In this document: positions 1,295 through 59,246 of the stretch, piece after piece
How positions within the stretch are numbered: position 1 is the first letter of the stretch
Layout: every line of letters starts with the position of its first letter
DNA from: an uncultured bacterium
GTDB taxonomy: Bacteria; Patescibacteriota; Minisyncoccia; Phycocordibacterales; UBA9973
Direction: 5' to 3'
Assembly (NCBI GenBank): GCA_937903035.1
Contig: CALCZP010000008.1
Location: 21,551 to 85,550, forward strand
DNA: 64,000 nucleotides
Translations under genes and position numbers: made by a program
Notes under the pieces: model-generated
The model's database searches: none
Seen by the model: only the letters and a program-made list of their open reading frames with translations
Told to the model about the DNA's origin: nothing

Positions 1295-2520
1295 GTCATC
1301 ACGAGGACACTTCACATCTCAAGACAGGTAAGAAAGTCATCATTGGCGTTATTTTTGTCGTAGCAGCATTTTTCTGTGGCGTGTCTGTTGGATATCAAAA
1401 CCGCCCTGCAATGGCGCAAATCGTAGATGTTGTGCACAAGGAAAGTCCAATAGTGAGCACTAGCAATGCTGACTTTAATACCTTCTGGAAAGCGTGGCAG
1501 ACGATTGATCAGAAGTTTCCTGGTGCTGACAAGATAAGCTCTACTGATCGGGTCTATGGGGCTATTAAGGGTTTGACAGAGTCATTTGGTGATCCGTACA
1601 CGATGTTTTTCCCGCCGGTTGAAAGTAAAATCTTTGAGAGTGAGATTGCAGGAGGGTTTGATGGCATTGGTGTTGAAATTGGAAAAAAAGATGGCATTCT
1701 AACCGTGATTGCACCACTCAAAGACACTCCAGGTGAAAAAGCTGGCATTAAGTCAGGTGACAAAATCGTCAAGATTGATGATACTGTTACTACTGATTTT
1801 TCTGTTGACAGGGCAATTGATTTGATTCGTGGCAAAGCTGGTACAACAGTGAAGCTCACGGTGATTCGTGAGGGATTGACTGAGCCCAAAGTTATTTCTG
1901 TTGTTCGTGGTCATATTGAACTTCCGACTATTAAGACTGAGGACCGGCCAAATGATGATGCGTATGTGATCCATTTGTACAACTTTTCTGCACAGTCAGC
2001 ACGACTCTTTCATGACGCAATGCTGAGCTATATCGCATCTGGACGCAAAAACCTCCTTCTTGATCTTCGTGGTAATCCTGGCGGCTATCTCGACGCTGCC
2101 GCTTCAATGGGAAGCTTGTTCATCTCTGAAGGAAAGGTTATTGTCAAAGAGATTGGTAAAACGCCTGATGATGTATCATCGCACAACAGTACTGGTCCCG
2201 TTCTATTCCCAAAGGGTTCAAAGCTCATCATTCTTGCTGATAAAGGCTCTGCATCAGCGTCAGAGATTCTCGCAGGTGCACTCGTTGATCATGGTATTGG
2301 CATTCTGGTAGGTGAGCAGACCTTTGGTAAGGGTTCGGTACAAGAAGTCGTAAAGCTTACCCCTGATACATCACTAAAGGTTACTGTTGCTAAATGGTAT
2401 ACTCCAAATGGTATTTCAATCTCTGAGAAAGGTCTCACCCCATCTATTGTGATTCATCAAGCAACAAGTGGTACAGTAGATACGCAACTCGAAGACGCGA
2501 TCAAACTTTTTAAACAATAA
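1291..2520 (+). CDS. ctpA: Carboxyl-terminal processing protease (peptidase S41, PDZ domain)
   Basis: PDZ-like GIGVEIGKKDGILTVIAPLKDTPGEKAGIKSGDKIVKIDD; S41 catalytic region LLLDLRGNPGGYL and KGSASASEILAGAL. Confidence 0.85.
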   Translation: MSHHEDTSHLKTGKKVIIGVIFVVAAFFCGVSVGYQNRPAMAQIVDVVHKESPIVSTSNADFNTFWKAWQTIDQKFPGADKISSTDRVYGAIKGLTESFGDPYTMFFPPVESKIFESEIAGGFDGIGVEIGKKDGILTVIAPLKDTPGEKAGIKSGDKIVKIDDTVTTDFSVDRAIDLIRGKAGTTVKLTVIREGLTEPKVISVVRGHIELPTIKTEDRPNDDAYVIHLYNFSAQSARLFHDAMLSYIASGRKNLLLDLRGNPGGYLDAAASMGSLFISEGKVIVKEIGKTPDDVSSHNSTGPVLFPKGSKLIILADKGSASASEILAGALVDHGIGILVGEQTFGKGSVQEVVKLTPDTSLKVTVAKWYTPNGISISEKGLTPSIVIHQATSGTVDTQLEDAIKLFKQ

Positions 2521-2971: not shown

Positions 2972-2984
2972 CTTTTACAGTAAA

Positions 2985-3018
2985 TAAAAAATCCTCTCAA
3001 ATGAGAGGATTTTTTATT
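2985..3018. terminator. Bidirectional rho-independent terminator between rplI (+) and rpmA (-)
   Basis: A-run, hairpin ATCCTCTCAaatgAGAGGAT, T-run. Confidence 0.6.
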
Positions 3019-3290
3019 TAGATAATGTTTGCAGCTTTGCGAGTAGTCTTGGTGCCATCAAAGTTGAGCTTGCGCTTTTGGCTGAACTTCACTGTACCAT
3101 CCTTGAGTGCGTAGAGGGTATGGTCTTTACCGATACCAACTGATACACCAGGAAGGATCTTGGTGCCACGCTGACGAACGATAATAGATCCAGCAAGCGC
3201 CTTCTGACCATCGTAGAGTTTTGTACCCAAATACTGCGCATTTGAGTCGCTGATGTTTTTTACTGCTCCTTGTGCTTTCTTATGTGCCAT
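3018..3290 (-). CDS. rpmA: 50S ribosomal protein L27 (start taken at internal ATG giving MAHKKAQG...; ORF track extends to a TTG at 3329)
   Basis: [12 protein letters not shown]...[13 protein letters not shown]...[18 protein letters not shown] is canonical L27; a sigma-70-like promoter sits inside the putative N-terminal extension. Confidence 0.8.
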
Positions 3291-29847: not shown

Positions 29848-30240
29848 TTAATTTTTGATTTCAAAGCAAATGATGGCTGCTATTGCGAATACAACTCCTA
29901 GTCCTTGCATTGTAGTGATTTGGATACCCTTTATAAGATCCCAAATCCAAACACCAAGAACATTGGAGAGTAATACGATAACTACTATCATAGTAAGCGA
30001 GTATTCTTTTGGTGCATGACGCATCACCAGACCAAGTCCTGACATAAATATCAGAAACAAGATCGCACTGATAGTCCACCAGCCAAATGTCATTCTTTGT
30101 GCCCAAAGGCTGAGGCATATATCACTGAATGCTCCGAAGACTCCAAGACATATAACTCCAATTAAAAAGTACATGATGTATAGATTTTGTGGTGAATTAT
30201 TATTTGAAATTATAATAACATATATATAATGAAAAGTCAA
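29848..30240 (-). CDS. Small 4-TM membrane protein (SMR/DMT-like?)
   Basis: About 110 aa of four hydrophobic helices from MYFLIGVICLG...; internal start likely. Confidence 0.4.
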   Translation of the reverse strand: MTFHYIYVIIISNNNSPQNLYIMYFLIGVICLGVFGAFSDICLSLWAQRMTFGWWTISAILFLIFMSGLGLVMRHAPKEYSLTMIVVIVLLSNVLGVWIWDLIKGIQITTMQGLGVVFAIAAIICFEIKN

Positions 30241-30285: not shown

Positions 30286-30906
30286 TTACTTTTTTGATTG
30301 TACTGCGAGCGTTGCACCGATGCTAACACCATTTCCCCATCCAGCCAGCCAGAGGATCTTGCGAACTTTGTCACAACAGAATGAGTACTGTAGCCGTGGA
30401 CCGGTCACGCCATAGCGCTGACTGTGGATACCAATACCAATTGACTGGTTGAACGGATAGTACACTGCATAGCCGAGCCACCAATTCCCCCAAGTCTTTG
30501 CATACGAATAGTTTGCATTGATCATGAGCTTGTTTTTCGCACGAGGTTCATCAGCCTTGGTTTCCAAGAAATAGTATGAATTCAAGAACGTGACATTGCC
30601 ACCTTTTGAAAATTCAAATCCAGGACCAATACCAATTTCATGATAGGTACTCCACACTTGTTTTGCGTAAAGTACACCAGGGCTCACTGATGATGCATCT
30701 GGTTCAAATGAGCCTTCAAGAAACACTCCCCAATTTCCCGTTCCAAATGTTTTGCTCACAAATGGATTTACAAAGGTATAGGGCTTTTCTCCAGAAGAGG
30801 ATTTGAACCTGGTATGAGAAGCATCGAGGCTTCCGTACCAGAGGGGTTCTTGGCTATATGCGGCAGTAGTTACAAAGAATGAAACGAAAAATAGTATTTT
30901 TTTCAT
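30286..30906 (-). CDS. Secreted aromatic/Gly-rich protein (206 aa), beta-rich porin-like composition
   Basis: Signal peptide MKKILFFVSFFVTTAAYSQ; alternating aromatic residues, many W/Y/G; no motif recognised. Confidence 0.45.
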   Translation of the reverse strand: MKKILFFVSFFVTTAAYSQEPLWYGSLDASHTRFKSSSGEKPYTFVNPFVSKTFGTGNWGVFLEGSFEPDASSVSPGVLYAKQVWSTYHEIGIGPGFEFSKGGNVTFLNSYYFLETKADEPRAKNKLMINANYSYAKTWGNWWLGYAVYYPFNQSIGIGIHSQRYGVTGPRLQYSFCCDKVRKILWLAGWGNGVSIGATLAVQSKK

Positions 30907-30957
30907 GCTATATGTTTTTCAACATAATATCATGAATCATATATTTGTCAATATATT

Positions 30958-46044: not shown

Positions 46045-46054
46045 ATGAAATAAA

Positions 46055-46089
46055 AACACTCCGTTTGTAGCGGAGTGTTTTTATTTTTT
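46055..46089 (+). terminator. Rho-independent terminator after hsp20
   Basis: AACACTCCGtttgtagCGGAGTGTT + TTTATTTTTT. Confidence 0.65.
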
Positions 46090-46546: not shown

Positions 46547-46626
46547 ATAAACAAAAGTATAGCATGAGGAATAGTTCTTAATTAAAAAACACCGAATAAT
46601 CGGTGTTTTGATTTACTAATTAGAAT

Positions 46627-47031
46627 TTATTCAGATGCAAGATTTAACCCATACATAAGCAAAGTTTCTACAACTTCGTTTATACTTTTTTCTCCAAAAG
46701 TACGGAATTTAAGAAGATCTTCCTTTGTATATTTAAGGAGTTCTTTAACAGTAACAATGCCTGCTTTTTTAAGACAGTTCATTGCTCTATTAGTTAAGTG
46801 CAATTCAGTTACGTCTGAATTAAGAATTTGTTCCTTATCTTCAATGTTTATTTTTTTCTTTGAATGTAAGAGATTATTCGGTAAAGCATAGGTAATTTCA
46901 AGCTCTTTATTAGAAGGAGTAACTACCAAACTTGTCATTATTGAACCTTTTACTATATAACCTTCTTTTTTTAGAAATTTCTCCAAATCTTTAAAATTTA
47001 GATTAATTTTTGAGGTCGTACTTATTTTCAT
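46627..47031 (-). CDS. Standalone protein with RNA polymerase alpha-subunit C-terminal-domain (alpha-CTD)-like HhH module (134 aa)
   Basis: LHLTNRAMNCLKKAGIVTVKELLKYTKEDLLKFRTFGEKSINEVVETLLMYGLNL parallels E. coli RpoA 260-320 [55 protein letters not shown]; AT-rich. Confidence 0.6.
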   Translation of the reverse strand: MKISTTSKINLNFKDLEKFLKKEGYIVKGSIMTSLVVTPSNKELEITYALPNNLLHSKKKINIEDKEQILNSDVTELHLTNRAMNCLKKAGIVTVKELLKYTKEDLLKFRTFGEKSINEVVETLLMYGLNLASE

Positions 47032-47040
47032 ATATGTAGT

Positions 47041-47091
47041 TTTAATTGTTACCAGAAACTCTTTCTTTTAGAATCTTTGGTAACAATTAAA
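47041..47091. repeat. 14-nt perfect inverted repeat TTTAATTGTTACCA / TGGTAACAATTAAA (23-nt spacer) in the 5' leader of the alpha-CTD-like gene
   Basis: Read directly; 3' arm ends 10 nt before the start codon on the minus strand. Confidence 0.7.
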
Positions 47092-47113
47092 ACTTTTAAA
47101 GAACTTATGTGAA

Positions 47114-47163
47114 TTATAATAGCATAGTATGCTTGACTTGTCAATCATACTATGCTATTATAA
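47114..47163. promoter_or_regulatory. 50-nt palindrome (18-nt perfect arms TTATAATAGCATAGTATG / CATACTATGCTATTATAA) encoding back-to-back divergent sigma-70-like promoters with overlapping -35 boxes
   Basis: Plus: TTGACT(47133-47138)-17-TATTAT(47156-47161); minus: TTGACA(47144-47139)-17-TATTAT(47121-47116). Confidence 0.45.
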
Positions 47164-47266
47164 AAGCAAGATTCGCTCTTTGAAAGATATTGTTGATTCG
47201 TCTGAGCTTCCCTGCCATAAAGAGGAGTTGAGAGGAATCAATACTATCAAATCAAAAATTATAAAG

Positions 47267-47488
47267 ATGTATCACCTAAATTTTATTCAGACAGTTCTAT
47301 CATTTGTACTAACTGTATGGATAGTATTTCTTGGATTCTCTTTCCTTATCGGAAAGAATAAAGAGTACGTAAAATGGACAAAGGACAGTCTCAAAGCGAT
47401 TTGGAAACATTGTTGGCAGCTTATTATAGGAATTATCATAGGATACTTCCTTGCTACAGAACAGGCTTTTGATCTAACAGTCCTCTAA
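47267..47488 (+). CDS. Small membrane protein (73 aa; ORF track starts at 47129 inside the palindromic promoter, so a downstream Met is preferred)
   Basis: MYHLNFIQTVLSFVLTVWIVFLGF... two TM helices. Confidence 0.35.
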   Translation: MYHLNFIQTVLSFVLTVWIVFLGFSFLIGKNKEYVKWTKDSLKAIWKHCWQLIIGIIIGYFLATEQAFDLTVL

Positions 47489-47519
47489 CACTATCCAATA
47501 GAATAGTGTTTTTTATTTT
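47487..47519 (+). terminator. Terminator after small membrane gene
   Basis: AACACTATccaatagaATAGTGTT + TTTTATTTT. Confidence 0.6.
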
Positions 47520-47520
47520 G

Positions 47521-47592
47521 TGCCCCCAGCACGAATCGAACGCACATCAATCCCTTAGGACGGGATTGTTCTATCCATTAAACTATGGGAGC
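47521..47592 (-). tRNA. tRNA-Arg (anticodon CCT)
   Basis: Reverse complement GCTCCCATAGTTTAATGGATAGAACAATCCCGTCCTAAGGGATTGATGTGCGTTCGATTCGTGCTGGGGGCA; loop GTCCTAA. Confidence 0.8.
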
Positions 47593-48380: not shown

Positions 48381-50171
48381 TTATTGCTTCATTACATTGA
48401 TAAAGACCGTATGCGGGATGTTCACGGAAGCGTGCTCCCGCATTTTCTTTTTCCCCTTCTTTTGCTTATCAAGGAGCTTGTTCTTGCGAGACACATCACC
48501 ACCGTAGAGATGCCCAATCACGTCCTTACGAAATGCCTTGAGTGTGCGTGACGCAATAATACGGCCAAAGGCTTTTGCCTGGATTTTCATTTCTACTTGC
48601 TGACGCGGTAGTAACTTCTCAAGTTTTTCAACAAATTCAATACCATCTTCTTCTGCACGACGACGTGACACGATACGGGTAAATGCTGGCACAAGCTCGT
48701 CTCCAACAACGATATCCATACGTGTGACATCAGCACTACGCATTTCGGTAATTTCATATGAAACTGAACCATAACCTGACGTAATACTTTTAAGCTCATC
48801 AAAAAAGTTGCGCATGAGCTCACGCAGCGGCATCAAACAATGAATCGTAGAACGATCATTAGCGAAATTTGCAACATCCAATACTTCAGCTTCATGCATA
48901 TAGAGAAACGGCATGAGTGTTCCCACCTGCTCAAGTGGACAAATAATATCAGCAGTCACCCATGGCTCCTCAATAGTAATCACTGTACCATCATCAGGGA
49001 ACAGGTGTGGTGAATACACAGTGATTTCTTTGTTGCCACGCACGGTCACCTGATACGTGATCGACGGCATTGTCACAATGAGCTCGAGATTAAACTCTCG
49101 ACGCAAGCGCTCTGAAATAATCTCAAGATGCAGCATGCCGAGAAAGCCACAGCGATAGCCACGCCCCAGTGCACCAGAAACTTCTTCTTCGTATGAAAAC
49201 GATGAGTCAGAGAGACGGAGCTTACCAAGTGCTAGCTTGAGATCATCAAAGTCATCCTGACTCTCCGGATAGATCGATGCCCATACCACCGGACGAGGCT
49301 GCTCATAACCACCAAGTGCAGGGAGTGGATTTTTGAAGCTCGTGATCGTATCACCCACCGCTGCAATACCTGGCTGCTTGATACCGGTGACGATATAGCC
49401 GATCGTACCTGCTACCAACTCATCAGTTGCTGTTTCGTTTGGCATGAATACACCGACTTCAAGGACGGAGAATTTTTGTTTACTTGCAGCAAACATGAGC
49501 TCATCCCCTTTCTTCACTTTACCTTGATAGAGACGTGTAAAAATGATGACCCCCTTATGATTGGAATAACTAAAGTCAAAGATGAGGCCTTGAGGACTAC
49601 TACCCATTGTTTCAATTTTTGGTGGTGGAATCCGAGAAACAATAGTATCAAGGAGCTCCTTTACCCCATCACCGGTCCGACCAGATACTGCAATAATACT
49701 CATGGGATCACAGTCCAGGAGCTCTGCAAGCTCAACCGTGACATCTTCGGCGCGAGAAAGTGGTGAGTCCACTTTAGTGATGACTGGAATAATCACAAGT
49801 CCACTCTCACGCGCAAGTGCAAGCGTGGTGAGTGTTTGTGCCTGTACACCTTGCGTTGAGTCTACGAGCAAGAGCGATCCCTCGACGGCCTTAAGTGCGC
49901 GTGAGACTTCGTATGAAAAGTCGATGTGACCTGGTGTATCAATAAGATTGAGCATATACTCCTCCCCCTCGACCTTGTGCCGCATTCTGACTGGCTGCAT
50001 TTTGATCGTAATACCACGCTCACGCTCAAGCTCCATTGAGTCGAGTACTTGATCACGCATTTTGCGCGCCTCAATGGTACCAGTGACCTCAAGCATGCGA
50101 TCTGCAAGCGTCGATTTGCCGTGGTCGATATGGGCAATAATACTGAAATTGCGGATGTTTTTGGAATCCAT
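48381..50171 (-). CDS. lepA: Elongation factor 4 (LepA); start at MDSKNIRNF
   Basis: NFSIIAHIDHGKSTLADRMLE (G1), DTPGHIDF, TKVDSP; LepA-specific C-terminal domain. Confidence 0.9.
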   Translation of the reverse strand: MDSKNIRNFSIIAHIDHGKSTLADRMLEVTGTIEARKMRDQVLDSMELERERGITIKMQPVRMRHKVEGEEYMLNLIDTPGHIDFSYEVSRALKAVEGSLLLVDSTQGVQAQTLTTLALARESGLVIIPVITKVDSPLSRAEDVTVELAELLDCDPMSIIAVSGRTGDGVKELLDTIVSRIPPPKIETMGSSPQGLIFDFSYSNHKGVIIFTRLYQGKVKKGDELMFAASKQKFSVLEVGVFMPNETATDELVAGTIGYIVTGIKQPGIAAVGDTITSFKNPLPALGGYEQPRPVVWASIYPESQDDFDDLKLALGKLRLSDSSFSYEEEVSGALGRGYRCGFLGMLHLEIISERLRREFNLELIVTMPSITYQVTVRGNKEITVYSPHLFPDDGTVITIEEPWVTADIICPLEQVGTLMPFLYMHEAEVLDVANFANDRSTIHCLMPLRELMRNFFDELKSITSGYGSVSYEITEMRSADVTRMDIVVGDELVPAFTRIVSRRRAEEDGIEFVEKLEKLLPRQQVEMKIQAKAFGRIIASRTLKAFRKDVIGHLYGGDVSRKNKLLDKQKKGKKKMREHASVNIPHTVFINVMKQ

Positions 50172-58286: not shown

Positions 58287-59246
58287 TTATTTCTTACTAT
58301 TGATCACACTCGTGACAAATTCTTTGAGACTACTTCCTACCGCATCGAGTGCTACCAAAAACGGTGAGTTGTCATGGAGGTGTGGTTGCGTATCCATTTC
58401 GATAAACCAGACCTTGCCGCGACTATCGATAATAAATTCGCTCTGTGAGTAATCCTCTGCGCCAAACATGTGATGGAGTCGCATTGCGAGTGCTGCCGCC
58501 TGCTCACGCTCACTCGGTGAGAGACTACCACCTGCAACAGCGTACTCCTCAGTACTACTGCGGATGTCATGATGGAGCACTCCACGAGCTGGAGACTTGA
58601 TTTCAACAGCAGGGAGTACGTACGTATCTTTGTTGCGGAAATTATTGATCACCCCGACTGCCGCTTCCCTTCCATAAATATATTGCTCGACAATAAAAGG
58701 CTCCTGATGCGAGACCGACTCCTCCACCATCATCGCAAGATCAAGTGCCGTGAATGCAAAATGCGTGTTGACTGACGCGCCTCCCGTGAGTGGCTTCATC
58801 ACCCATGGTGGTGCCATGTGCTGATAGATGCGTTGCGTGATCTCTGAGACACTTTCGGTGCCGTCAGGAATGACGAGGAGTGACTCGGGTGTATTGATAC
58901 CGAGTGACTTCGCAGCTTCTTTCGCAGTCTGCTTGTTAAATGCGAGTCCAGATGCGAGGGCGCCACTGCCGGTATAGGGAATACCATAGTCATCAAGGAG
59001 ACGTGAGAGCTTGCCGTCCTCACCAAACTCACCATGAAGCGCGTTCCATACGGCATCCACACTTGCAGTGGCCTTTTCCATATCGGCAGGCACACCTTTG
59101 ATGTGAAGTACACCATCTTTGTCGAGCAGCATATCAATCGCCTCAAAGCCGGCATCCATAAGTGCCTTCTGAACGTTTGCACCAGTCTTCAAAGAAAAAT
59201 GATATTCGGGACTGATCCCTCCGCGAATGATACCGATGCGTTGCAT
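58287..59246 (-). CDS. ddl: D-alanine--D-alanine ligase (ATP-grasp)
   Basis: N-terminal IGIIRGGISPEYHFSLKTG, ATP-grasp core with HGEFGEDG, C-terminal ...WFIEMDTQPHL. Confidence 0.8.
   Translation of the reverse strand: MQRIGIIRGGISPEYHFSLKTGANVQKALMDAGFEAIDMLLDKDGVLHIKGVPADMEKATASVDAVWNALHGEFGEDGKLSRLLDDYGIPYTGSGALASGLAFNKQTAKEAAKSLGINTPESLLVIPDGTESVSEITQRIYQHMAPPWVMKPLTGGASVNTHFAFTALDLAMMVEESVSHQEPFIVEQYIYGREAAVGVINNFRNKDTYVLPAVEIKSPARGVLHHDIRSSTEEYAVAGGSLSPSEREQAAALAMRLHHMFGAEDYSQSEFIIDSRGKVWFIEMDTQPHLHDNSPFLVALDAVGSSLKEFVTSVINSKK

Follow-up and report, generated by a model that had tools for sequence, protein, structure and literature searches.

A near-perfect palindrome in a horizontally acquired two-gene cassette of a patescibacterium is most likely a pair of partly overlapping divergent promoters

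Compact pairs of overlapping divergent promoters are a known and widespread arrangement. In the Bacillus plasmid pLS20, the two promoters Pc and Pr overlap completely, the -10 box of each coinciding with the -35 box of the other; one of the promoters is weak, and the regulator Rco acts on both (PMC4207663). In the bidirectional promoters described by Warman, Grainger and colleagues, the two directions share a single -10 element, the -35 boxes lie outside it and the transcription starts are separated by 18 bp (10 and 23 bp also occur); for strong symmetric promoters of this kind, competition of polymerases has been demonstrated experimentally in E. coli (PMC12825309). In the genetic switches of phages (PR/PRM of lambda, PR/PL of TP901-1 and phi13), the divergent promoters have palindromic operators between them, and the switch itself encodes the repressor (PMC8516035).

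The element described here is best filed with such compact overlapping divergent promoter pairs, and not as a new kind of element. It was found in a stretch of 64 000 nucleotides from an uncultured member of the Patescibacteriota, analysed as a whole and called the window below. The element is a 50 bp palindrome with the sequence TTATAATAGCATAGTATGCTTGACTTGTCAATCATACTATGCTATTATAA, and it lies between two small divergent genes in an AT-rich insertion (the islet) next to a tRNA gene. The features of the region are reported in table 1.

Table 1. Features of the islet, its palindrome and its border. Positions are those of the window.
Feature	Coordinates	Strand	Characteristics
AT-rich insertion (islet), 953 bp	46567–47519		between tRNA-Arg(CCT) 3' end and orf91 promoter
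Probable terminator after alpha-CTD-like gene (hairpin plus T-run)	46584–46609	-	CACCG-ATTATT-CGGTG, then TTTTTT
Orphan alpha-CTD-only gene, 134 aa	46627–47031	-	Pfam RNA_pol_A_CTD, 8e-21, residues 64–124
Leader hairpin I2, 5' UTR of alpha-CTD-like gene	47038–47094	-	25-nt arms, 88%; -26.8 kcal/mol, z -6.8
Near-perfect palindrome	47114–47163		50 bp, centre TTGAC-TT-GTCAA
Predicted leftward promoter	47116–47144	-	-35 TTGACA 47144–47139; 17-nt spacer; TG 47124–47123; -10 TATTAT 47121–47116
Predicted rightward promoter	47133–47161	+	-35 TTGACT 47133–47138; 17-nt spacer; TG 47153–47154; -10 TATTAT 47156–47161
Leader hairpin I3, 5' UTR of membrane-protein gene	47186–47248	+	z -3.5; kept in closest homologue (L214)
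Small membrane-protein gene, 73 aa, two predicted TM segments	47267–47488	+	start ATG 47267
Probable terminator after membrane-protein gene (hairpin plus T-run)	47488–47519	+	ACACTAT...ATAGTGT, then TTTTTATTTT
tRNA-Arg(CCT)	47520–47592	-	3' end is right border of insertion

A repeat search returned two arms of 24 nt (47114–47137 and 47140–47163), 96 per cent complementary and separated by 2 nt. When the palindrome is compared with its own reverse complement, 46 of the 50 positions agree, so that 23 of 25 pairs are formed. Pairing fails at 47132/47145 and at the central 47138/47139 (TT), and the outer arms are perfect over 18 nt, as had been reported in a first-pass annotation whose quotation of the sequence is identical to ours. 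In random 64 kb sequences generated by a Markov model with the dinucleotide make-up of either the window or the islet (25 runs each), the longest perfect arm measured 9–13 nt per sequence, so that chance is no explanation for arms of 18 nt. The palindrome is covered by eight contigs from eight samples with no difference among them, and is therefore no assembly artefact. No variation was found in the islet across contigs of the same strain. One such contig (L210, the same as L041) shows 26 mismatches, all of them at its end inside lepA (window positions 50022–50145), and is otherwise identical; this clustering at the contig end suggests that the contig is a chimera with a related strain.

Other palindromes of similar or greater length in the window are restricted to positions 2981–3020 and 46048–46086, both between convergent genes. 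These two are perfect hairpins with arms of 19 and 16 nt, respectively, flanked by A-runs and T-runs, and they resemble two-way terminators. Neither an arm of the palindrome nor an arm of hairpin I2 has a further copy anywhere in the 64 kb window. A pattern scan of metagenomes recovered the palindrome from contigs of the same strain only, and the corresponding scan of viral contigs recovered none.

Both halves of the palindrome have the hallmarks of sigma-70-type promoters: a -35 box, a spacer of 17 nt, a -10 box and an extended -10, the last being present as TGCTATTAT on both strands. The leftward promoter matches the consensus at 11 of 12 positions, plus the TG, and has the top score in the window. 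The rightward promoter, with 10 of 12 matches plus the TG, is joint third; as a second promoter it follows automatically from the symmetry and is thus no independent observation. For sites of equal quality, chance alone would give 0.34 per 64 kb and, in islet-like sequence, 0.01 per 953 bp. The reading TTGAC(T/A)-17 nt-TATTAT, which the annotation had proposed for each strand, is confirmed and can be extended by the TG. The annotation had also described the -35 boxes as overlapping, and this holds for the promoters but not for the boxes. The two hexamers (47133–38 and 47139–44) abut and have no base in common. Each of them forms the first six bases of the spacer of the opposite promoter, and through this interdigitation the promoters overlap by 12 bp. 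The -10 boxes of the outward pair are separate, 34 bp apart.

On the basis of the usual distance of 6–8 nt after the -10 box, we predict that transcription starts at about 47108–47110 in the leftward direction and at about 47168 in the rightward direction, that is, about 59 bp apart. Matches to a consensus fall short of proof of function, and these positions are estimates. For both flanking genes the element is upstream and points at them, with no better promoter candidate, and no -10 box of the host style was found near the ATG of either islet gene. The proposal that a single symmetric element could drive divergent transcription toward both genes is supported by the quality and layout of the promoters and, as described below, by the recurrence of the design and the promoters of homologous genes. 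The palindrome thus most likely represents two partly overlapping promoters running in opposite directions.

Such an element would work like the promoters of pLS20, of the shared -10 class and of the phage switches, and strictly belongs to none of these groups. As with Pc and Pr, two opposed promoters of the sigma-A type occupy the same short piece of DNA, a situation in which polymerases compete; in both systems there is a promoter that combines a -35 box with an extended -10 and feeds a long structured leader, and both pLS20 and the islet are horizontally moving DNA (PMC4207663). In contrast to the full overlap in pLS20, only the -35 regions interdigitate in the window (the overlap being limited to 12 bp), both promoters are near-consensus and no regulator gene was found in the islet.

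The shared -10 class resembles the window in that the symmetry of the DNA allows polymerase to bind in two orientations, with competition when the promoters are strong (PMC12825309), and the ends of the arms (TTATAATA) correspond to a symmetric -10 of this type. However, the outward pair has separate -10 boxes and central -35 boxes, and with the spacing of its -10 boxes and of its predicted starts it fails as a shared -10 promoter. The phage switches likewise consist of a compact divergent pair whose promoters are separated or covered by DNA of dyad symmetry, and the control of two small genes of opposed roles by such a pair can be listed as a further likeness (PMC8516035). Unlike these switches, the islet encodes no recognisable repressor, and it has one palindrome of 50 bp instead of several short operators.

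The product of the leftward gene keeps the motifs R-x-x-N-C and G-x-K-S when aligned with solved alpha-CTD structures from the PDB; these are the DNA-contact motifs of the alpha subunit of RNA polymerase. Among 5.8 billion proteins, only one other family was found, and it is distant (P0002, 48% over the CTD); it is located on short AT-rich contigs (L002–L004). An AlphaFold model computed from the single sequence is confident only at residues ~70–134, with pLDDT values of 33–56 before them. The 3' arm of the leader hairpin I2 contains the 14-nt sequence TAACAATTAAAACT (47038–47051, minus strand), 6 nt before the ATG. The same 14 nt are found, without any change, upstream of the start codon of the distant homologue in L002 (406–419). 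This identity favours ATG 47031 as the start of the gene, and the sequence may be a translation-initiation signal. The hairpin plus T-run downstream of the gene was read by eye from the sequence and is absent from the list of the terminator scan.

The rightward gene had been listed as an open reading frame (ORF) of 119 aa with a start at 47129, inside the palindrome, which the first-pass annotation already suspected was not the true one. A HMMER search with this ORF against 1.84 billion representatives returned 21 homologues of 58–136 aa, most of them 67–77 aa long, and all 21 align from residues 47–57 of the query. It follows that the gene begins at ATG 47267, as given in table 1, and that the 46-codon extension to 47129 is not real. 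The family (P0004–P0025) consists of two-TM proteins of ~72 aa without a Pfam model, with invariant residues W, W, W and G, and it includes tandem duplicates of 134–136 aa. Their genomic contexts are scattered and varied, for example after rpmB or a tRNA gene, and in our judgement Patescibacteria-like.

Two of the homologues (L218 and L216) have a promoter of their own, TTGACw-16/17-TATAAT, 36–43 nt before the ATG, and a leader. In the closest homologue (L214, 3–50), which is on a contig of 362 bp, the outer stem of the leader hairpin, TTGTTGATTC...GAATCAATA, is identical to that of I3, and the inner stem is different and still paired. Hairpin I3 encloses two purine-rich runs resembling Shine–Dalgarno sequences, and it has no matching Rfam family. 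With a type I toxin–antitoxin locus in mind, we note that the islet encodes a small two-TM protein whose predicted mRNA has a structured leader. Complementarity between the leaders of the two islet genes is limited to a 14/17 AT-rich match (D16), which is not above chance.

The other best promoter sites of the window, TTGACA-16-TGaTATTAT at 30951 and TTGACT-17-TGtTATTAT at 30240, are of the same type as those of the palindrome. They occupy positions 30924–30951 and 30212–30240 of the minus strand, near-consensus sites of the form TTGACw-16/17-TGnTATTAT that precede the genes of a signal-peptide protein (30286–30906) and of a small multi-TM protein. The GC content there is ~39–40%, and the genes downstream code for accessory secreted or membrane proteins. 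Only 8 of 47 genes in the window have a Shine–Dalgarno-like motif. A good -10 hexamer, often within ATGCTATAMT, ends 4–12 nt before the ATG in 13 of the 47 (e.g. 24012, 37151, 46546, 58287–59246), which suggests that leaderless mRNAs are widespread in the host. Most host genes apparently follow this leaderless style, with a -10 box only, and the full -35/-10 promoters of the palindrome with their long leaders are thus atypical for the host.

The palindrome could be read in the same style. It contains two -10 boxes that point inward, TATAAT at 47115–20 (plus strand) and at 47162–57 (minus strand), from which leaderless mRNAs might be produced for the ORF of 119 aa at ATG 47129 (+) and for one of 26 aa at ATG 47148 (-). 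The arrangement TATAAT-8 nt-ATG matches the leaderless pattern of this Shine–Dalgarno-poor host, and the frame from 47129 remains open for 46 codons in AT-rich DNA. Against this, the inward boxes have no TG and no -35 box, the homologues of the membrane protein all begin at or just after residue 47, and the 46 additional codons are encoded by the palindrome and the conserved leader hairpin. As the extension is not real, most of the support for inward leaderless transcription is removed, and we regard a function of the inward boxes as very improbable.

The GC content, in windows of 300 bp, is ~25–34% between ~46500 and 47550, as compared with ~45% nearby. The gene order ValRS-PrsW-HSP20-tRNA-Phe-orf91-tRNA-Arg-Grx-DivIC-LepA-MurJ is kept in about 16 syntenic relatives covering the site (Paceibacteria and related Patescibacteria). 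The insertion is absent from all of these, and neither islet gene is found in any of them. In several, the 3' end of tRNA-Arg(CCT) leads straight into (A)TGnTATACT and the ATG of the orf91 homologue, and this junction defines the insertion and its borders. The cassette is therefore foreign to this site and, judging from these comparisons, was acquired horizontally.

Within the clade (L005–L022), the DNA next to the 3' end of tRNA-Arg(CCT) is a hotspot of insertion. Other cargo at the same site includes pilin-like genes (L015, L020 and L022), a surface protein of 979 aa (L013) and tRNA-end-like fragments (L010, L017 and L020). In the closest relative, L005, tRNA-Arg is directly followed by an unrelated perfect palindrome of 50 bp, CACATGAGTGAAAAATATCTCAC-gcag-GTGAGATATTTTTCACTCATGTG (2117–2166, plus strand), and then by a scaffold gap of 100 N.

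The islet was also considered as an integrative element at a tRNA gene. Only the two small genes are present in it, with no integrase, recombinase, protelomerase or replication gene. No direct repeat of the tRNA end was found at its far border, the only repeat being a 7-nt GAATAGT at asymmetric distances from the borders. Lacking an integrase and a tRNA-end repeat, the islet does not qualify as such an element. It shows no similarity to phage and plasmid records, and neither of its proteins has a relative among the viral contigs. The one defence match that PADLOC reported for the islet is weak and concerns an alpha-CTD-like stretch of PglW. At the Rfam gathering threshold, five tRNAs and nothing else were detected.

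These data bear on whether the palindrome is a promoter element at all. As single-stranded DNA it folds well (-17.5 kcal/mol, z -7.7), and the insert that contains it is foreign and adjoins the 3' end of a tRNA gene, a hotspot where L005 has its own, unrelated palindrome at the same place; the palindrome of the window might accordingly be imagined as a terminator or RNA hairpin, a cruciform, a site of recombination or telomere resolution, or the replication origin of a mobile element. An intrinsic terminator is ruled out. The stem is AT-rich and not G+C-rich, a T-run is found on neither side, the terminator scan does not list the palindrome and the genes diverge from it instead of converging, each ending in its own hairpin plus T-run. 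The gene content of the islet, the lack of a tRNA-end duplication and the lack of similarity to phages or plasmids speak against the remaining possibilities. We consider a role outside transcription initiation extremely improbable.

The promoter architecture was searched for in metagenomes with the pattern ATWATANCA-N8-TTGAC-NN-GTCAA-N8-TGNTATWAT. This identified 53 contigs with 44 distinct cores, one of them that of the window. The 43 others are identical to it in geometry, both spacers being 17 nt long, and unrelated to it in spacer sequence. On 78 per cent of the testable sides of these cores, an ORF of 70 aa or more starts no further than 60 nt away, compared with 34 per cent at random positions drawn from the same loci; for ORFs on both sides, the proportions are 60 per cent of the loci and 9.5 per cent, respectively. 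The flanking genes include those for a phi29-like Gp16 ATPase with a holin (14 contigs), a sugar-binding protein with GntR, ZnuA with PhoU, and QueA. Contigs of phi29-like podoviruses with the promoter pair between the holin and Gp16 packaging ATPase genes are L026, L033, L039, L040, L043, L045, L057, L063, L070, L073 and L079–L084.

Viral contigs were scanned with a free central gap of 0–30 nt, and all seven matches have a gap of 2, corresponding to spacers of 17 nt. They represent six distinct cores with the pattern ATWATAnCA-N8-TTGACnnGTCAA-N8-TGnTATWAT. Like the element of the window, the 43 metagenomic and six viral cores have extended -10 boxes and abutting, interdigitated -35 boxes, and some of them (e.g. 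L028 and L037) are equally symmetric through the spacers. Their spacers and flanking genes are unrelated to those of the window, pointing to a common design and not to common ancestry. Back-to-back pairs that are not interdigitated gave at least 120 matches in viral contigs at the same stringency, with gaps of 2–30 nt; among the loci analysed, 103 are distinct. The idea that the interdigitated geometry is specially favoured was rejected, its frequency (seven viral matches) being much the same as that of any single spacing. Given that non-interdigitated pairs are far more numerous, the interdigitated form is one unremarkable arrangement in a continuous range of compact divergent pairs.

The symmetry of the element goes beyond what these promoters need. 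It extends through the spacers, where 8 of 10 free pairs agree, placing the window among the most symmetric of the 44 cores, and it includes two pairs outside the promoters. Over the 44 cores, 5.2 of 10 free spacer pairs are symmetric, as compared with 3.87 ± 0.22 under a column-preserving null, and for the pairs without interdigitation the excess is smaller (6.33 versus 5.79 ± 0.19 of 16). Each arm contains in addition a small internal dyad, GCATAGTATGC at 47122–32 and CATACTATG at 47146–54. These features, together with the overlap of the dyad symmetry with the promoter elements and the precedent of palindromic operators between divergent promoters in phage switches (PMC8516035), are what would be expected if the palindrome were at the same time an operator.

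According to this model, which the first-pass annotation had put forward for a dimeric regulator and which resembles bioO/BirA or the CI switches of phages, a dimeric or tetrameric repressor would bind the arms and shut both promoters simultaneously; such a function would come on top of the promoter reading and leave it intact. On the other side, no gene for an HTH, RHH or other classical regulator was found in the islet, no second copy of a half-site occurs in the window, and a base composition shared within a genome could explain part of the excess symmetry. Furthermore, the TATG of the arms is already accounted for as the TRTG (-16) promoter motif. An additional operator function seems to us possible and rather doubtful.

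Alternatively, the symmetry could be a historical by-product. One promoter would have been copied in inverted orientation, by template switching or hairpin repair, when two cassettes were joined, and the symmetry would be unselected, one of the promoters perhaps being idle. The perfect outer arms with mismatches near the centre only are consistent with such an origin, and so is the presence of TCTTTRAAAG and ATTGTT at matching distances in both outside flanks. Highly symmetric pairs without interdigitation are also found in phages (e.g. L113, at 91%), and the known copies of the palindrome belong to one strain and are invariant, so that selection cannot be read from them. However, the similarity of the flanks is not significant, as 82 of 1000 shuffles reach the same level, which also eliminates a larger inverted duplication extending beyond the palindrome. 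Moreover, both islet genes need a promoter and neither has a better upstream candidate, and ORFs flank both sides in 60 per cent of the other examples. We therefore find it unlikely that the symmetry is a mere relic.

The explanation that we favour, and consider likely, is that a single stretch of 50 bp is shared by two outward promoters, which compete for it and each feed a structured leader. The palindrome would be the shared control region of a horizontally acquired two-gene cassette. Initiation near 47109 would give an mRNA with a structured leader of 78 nt for the alpha-CTD-only protein, and initiation near 47168 an mRNA with a leader of ~100 nt and a conserved hairpin for the membrane protein of 73 aa. 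The footprint of RNA polymerase extends from about -55 to +20. With this size, each of the two footprints would span the whole palindrome, and the promoters would probably compete for polymerase instead of firing independently.

A more far-reaching joint reading would make the cassette of 953 bp a self-contained switch, in which near-equal and mutually exclusive promoters choose between the alpha-CTD-only protein and the membrane protein. The alpha-CTD-only protein would feed back in one of two ways, occupying the AT-rich arms, which lie where each promoter would have its UP element, or contending there with the alpha-CTD of the polymerase, and the interdigitated TTGACnnGTCAA design would be a reusable polymerase 'toggle' of phages and bacteria. 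With the feedback and the general toggle included, this reading appears decidedly unlikely.

The element itself overturns nothing that is known. If both promoters fire as predicted, it would be a very compact and near-perfect case of strong promoters forced onto shared DNA, and the occurrence of the interdigitated design in unrelated bacteria and in phi29-like phages makes it testable as a general competition device. To our knowledge, almost nothing is known about the transcription signals of Patescibacteria. The picture that emerges for this genome is one in which accessory genes would have full promoters with a -35 box and an extended -10, and many core genes would follow a leaderless style with a -10 box only.
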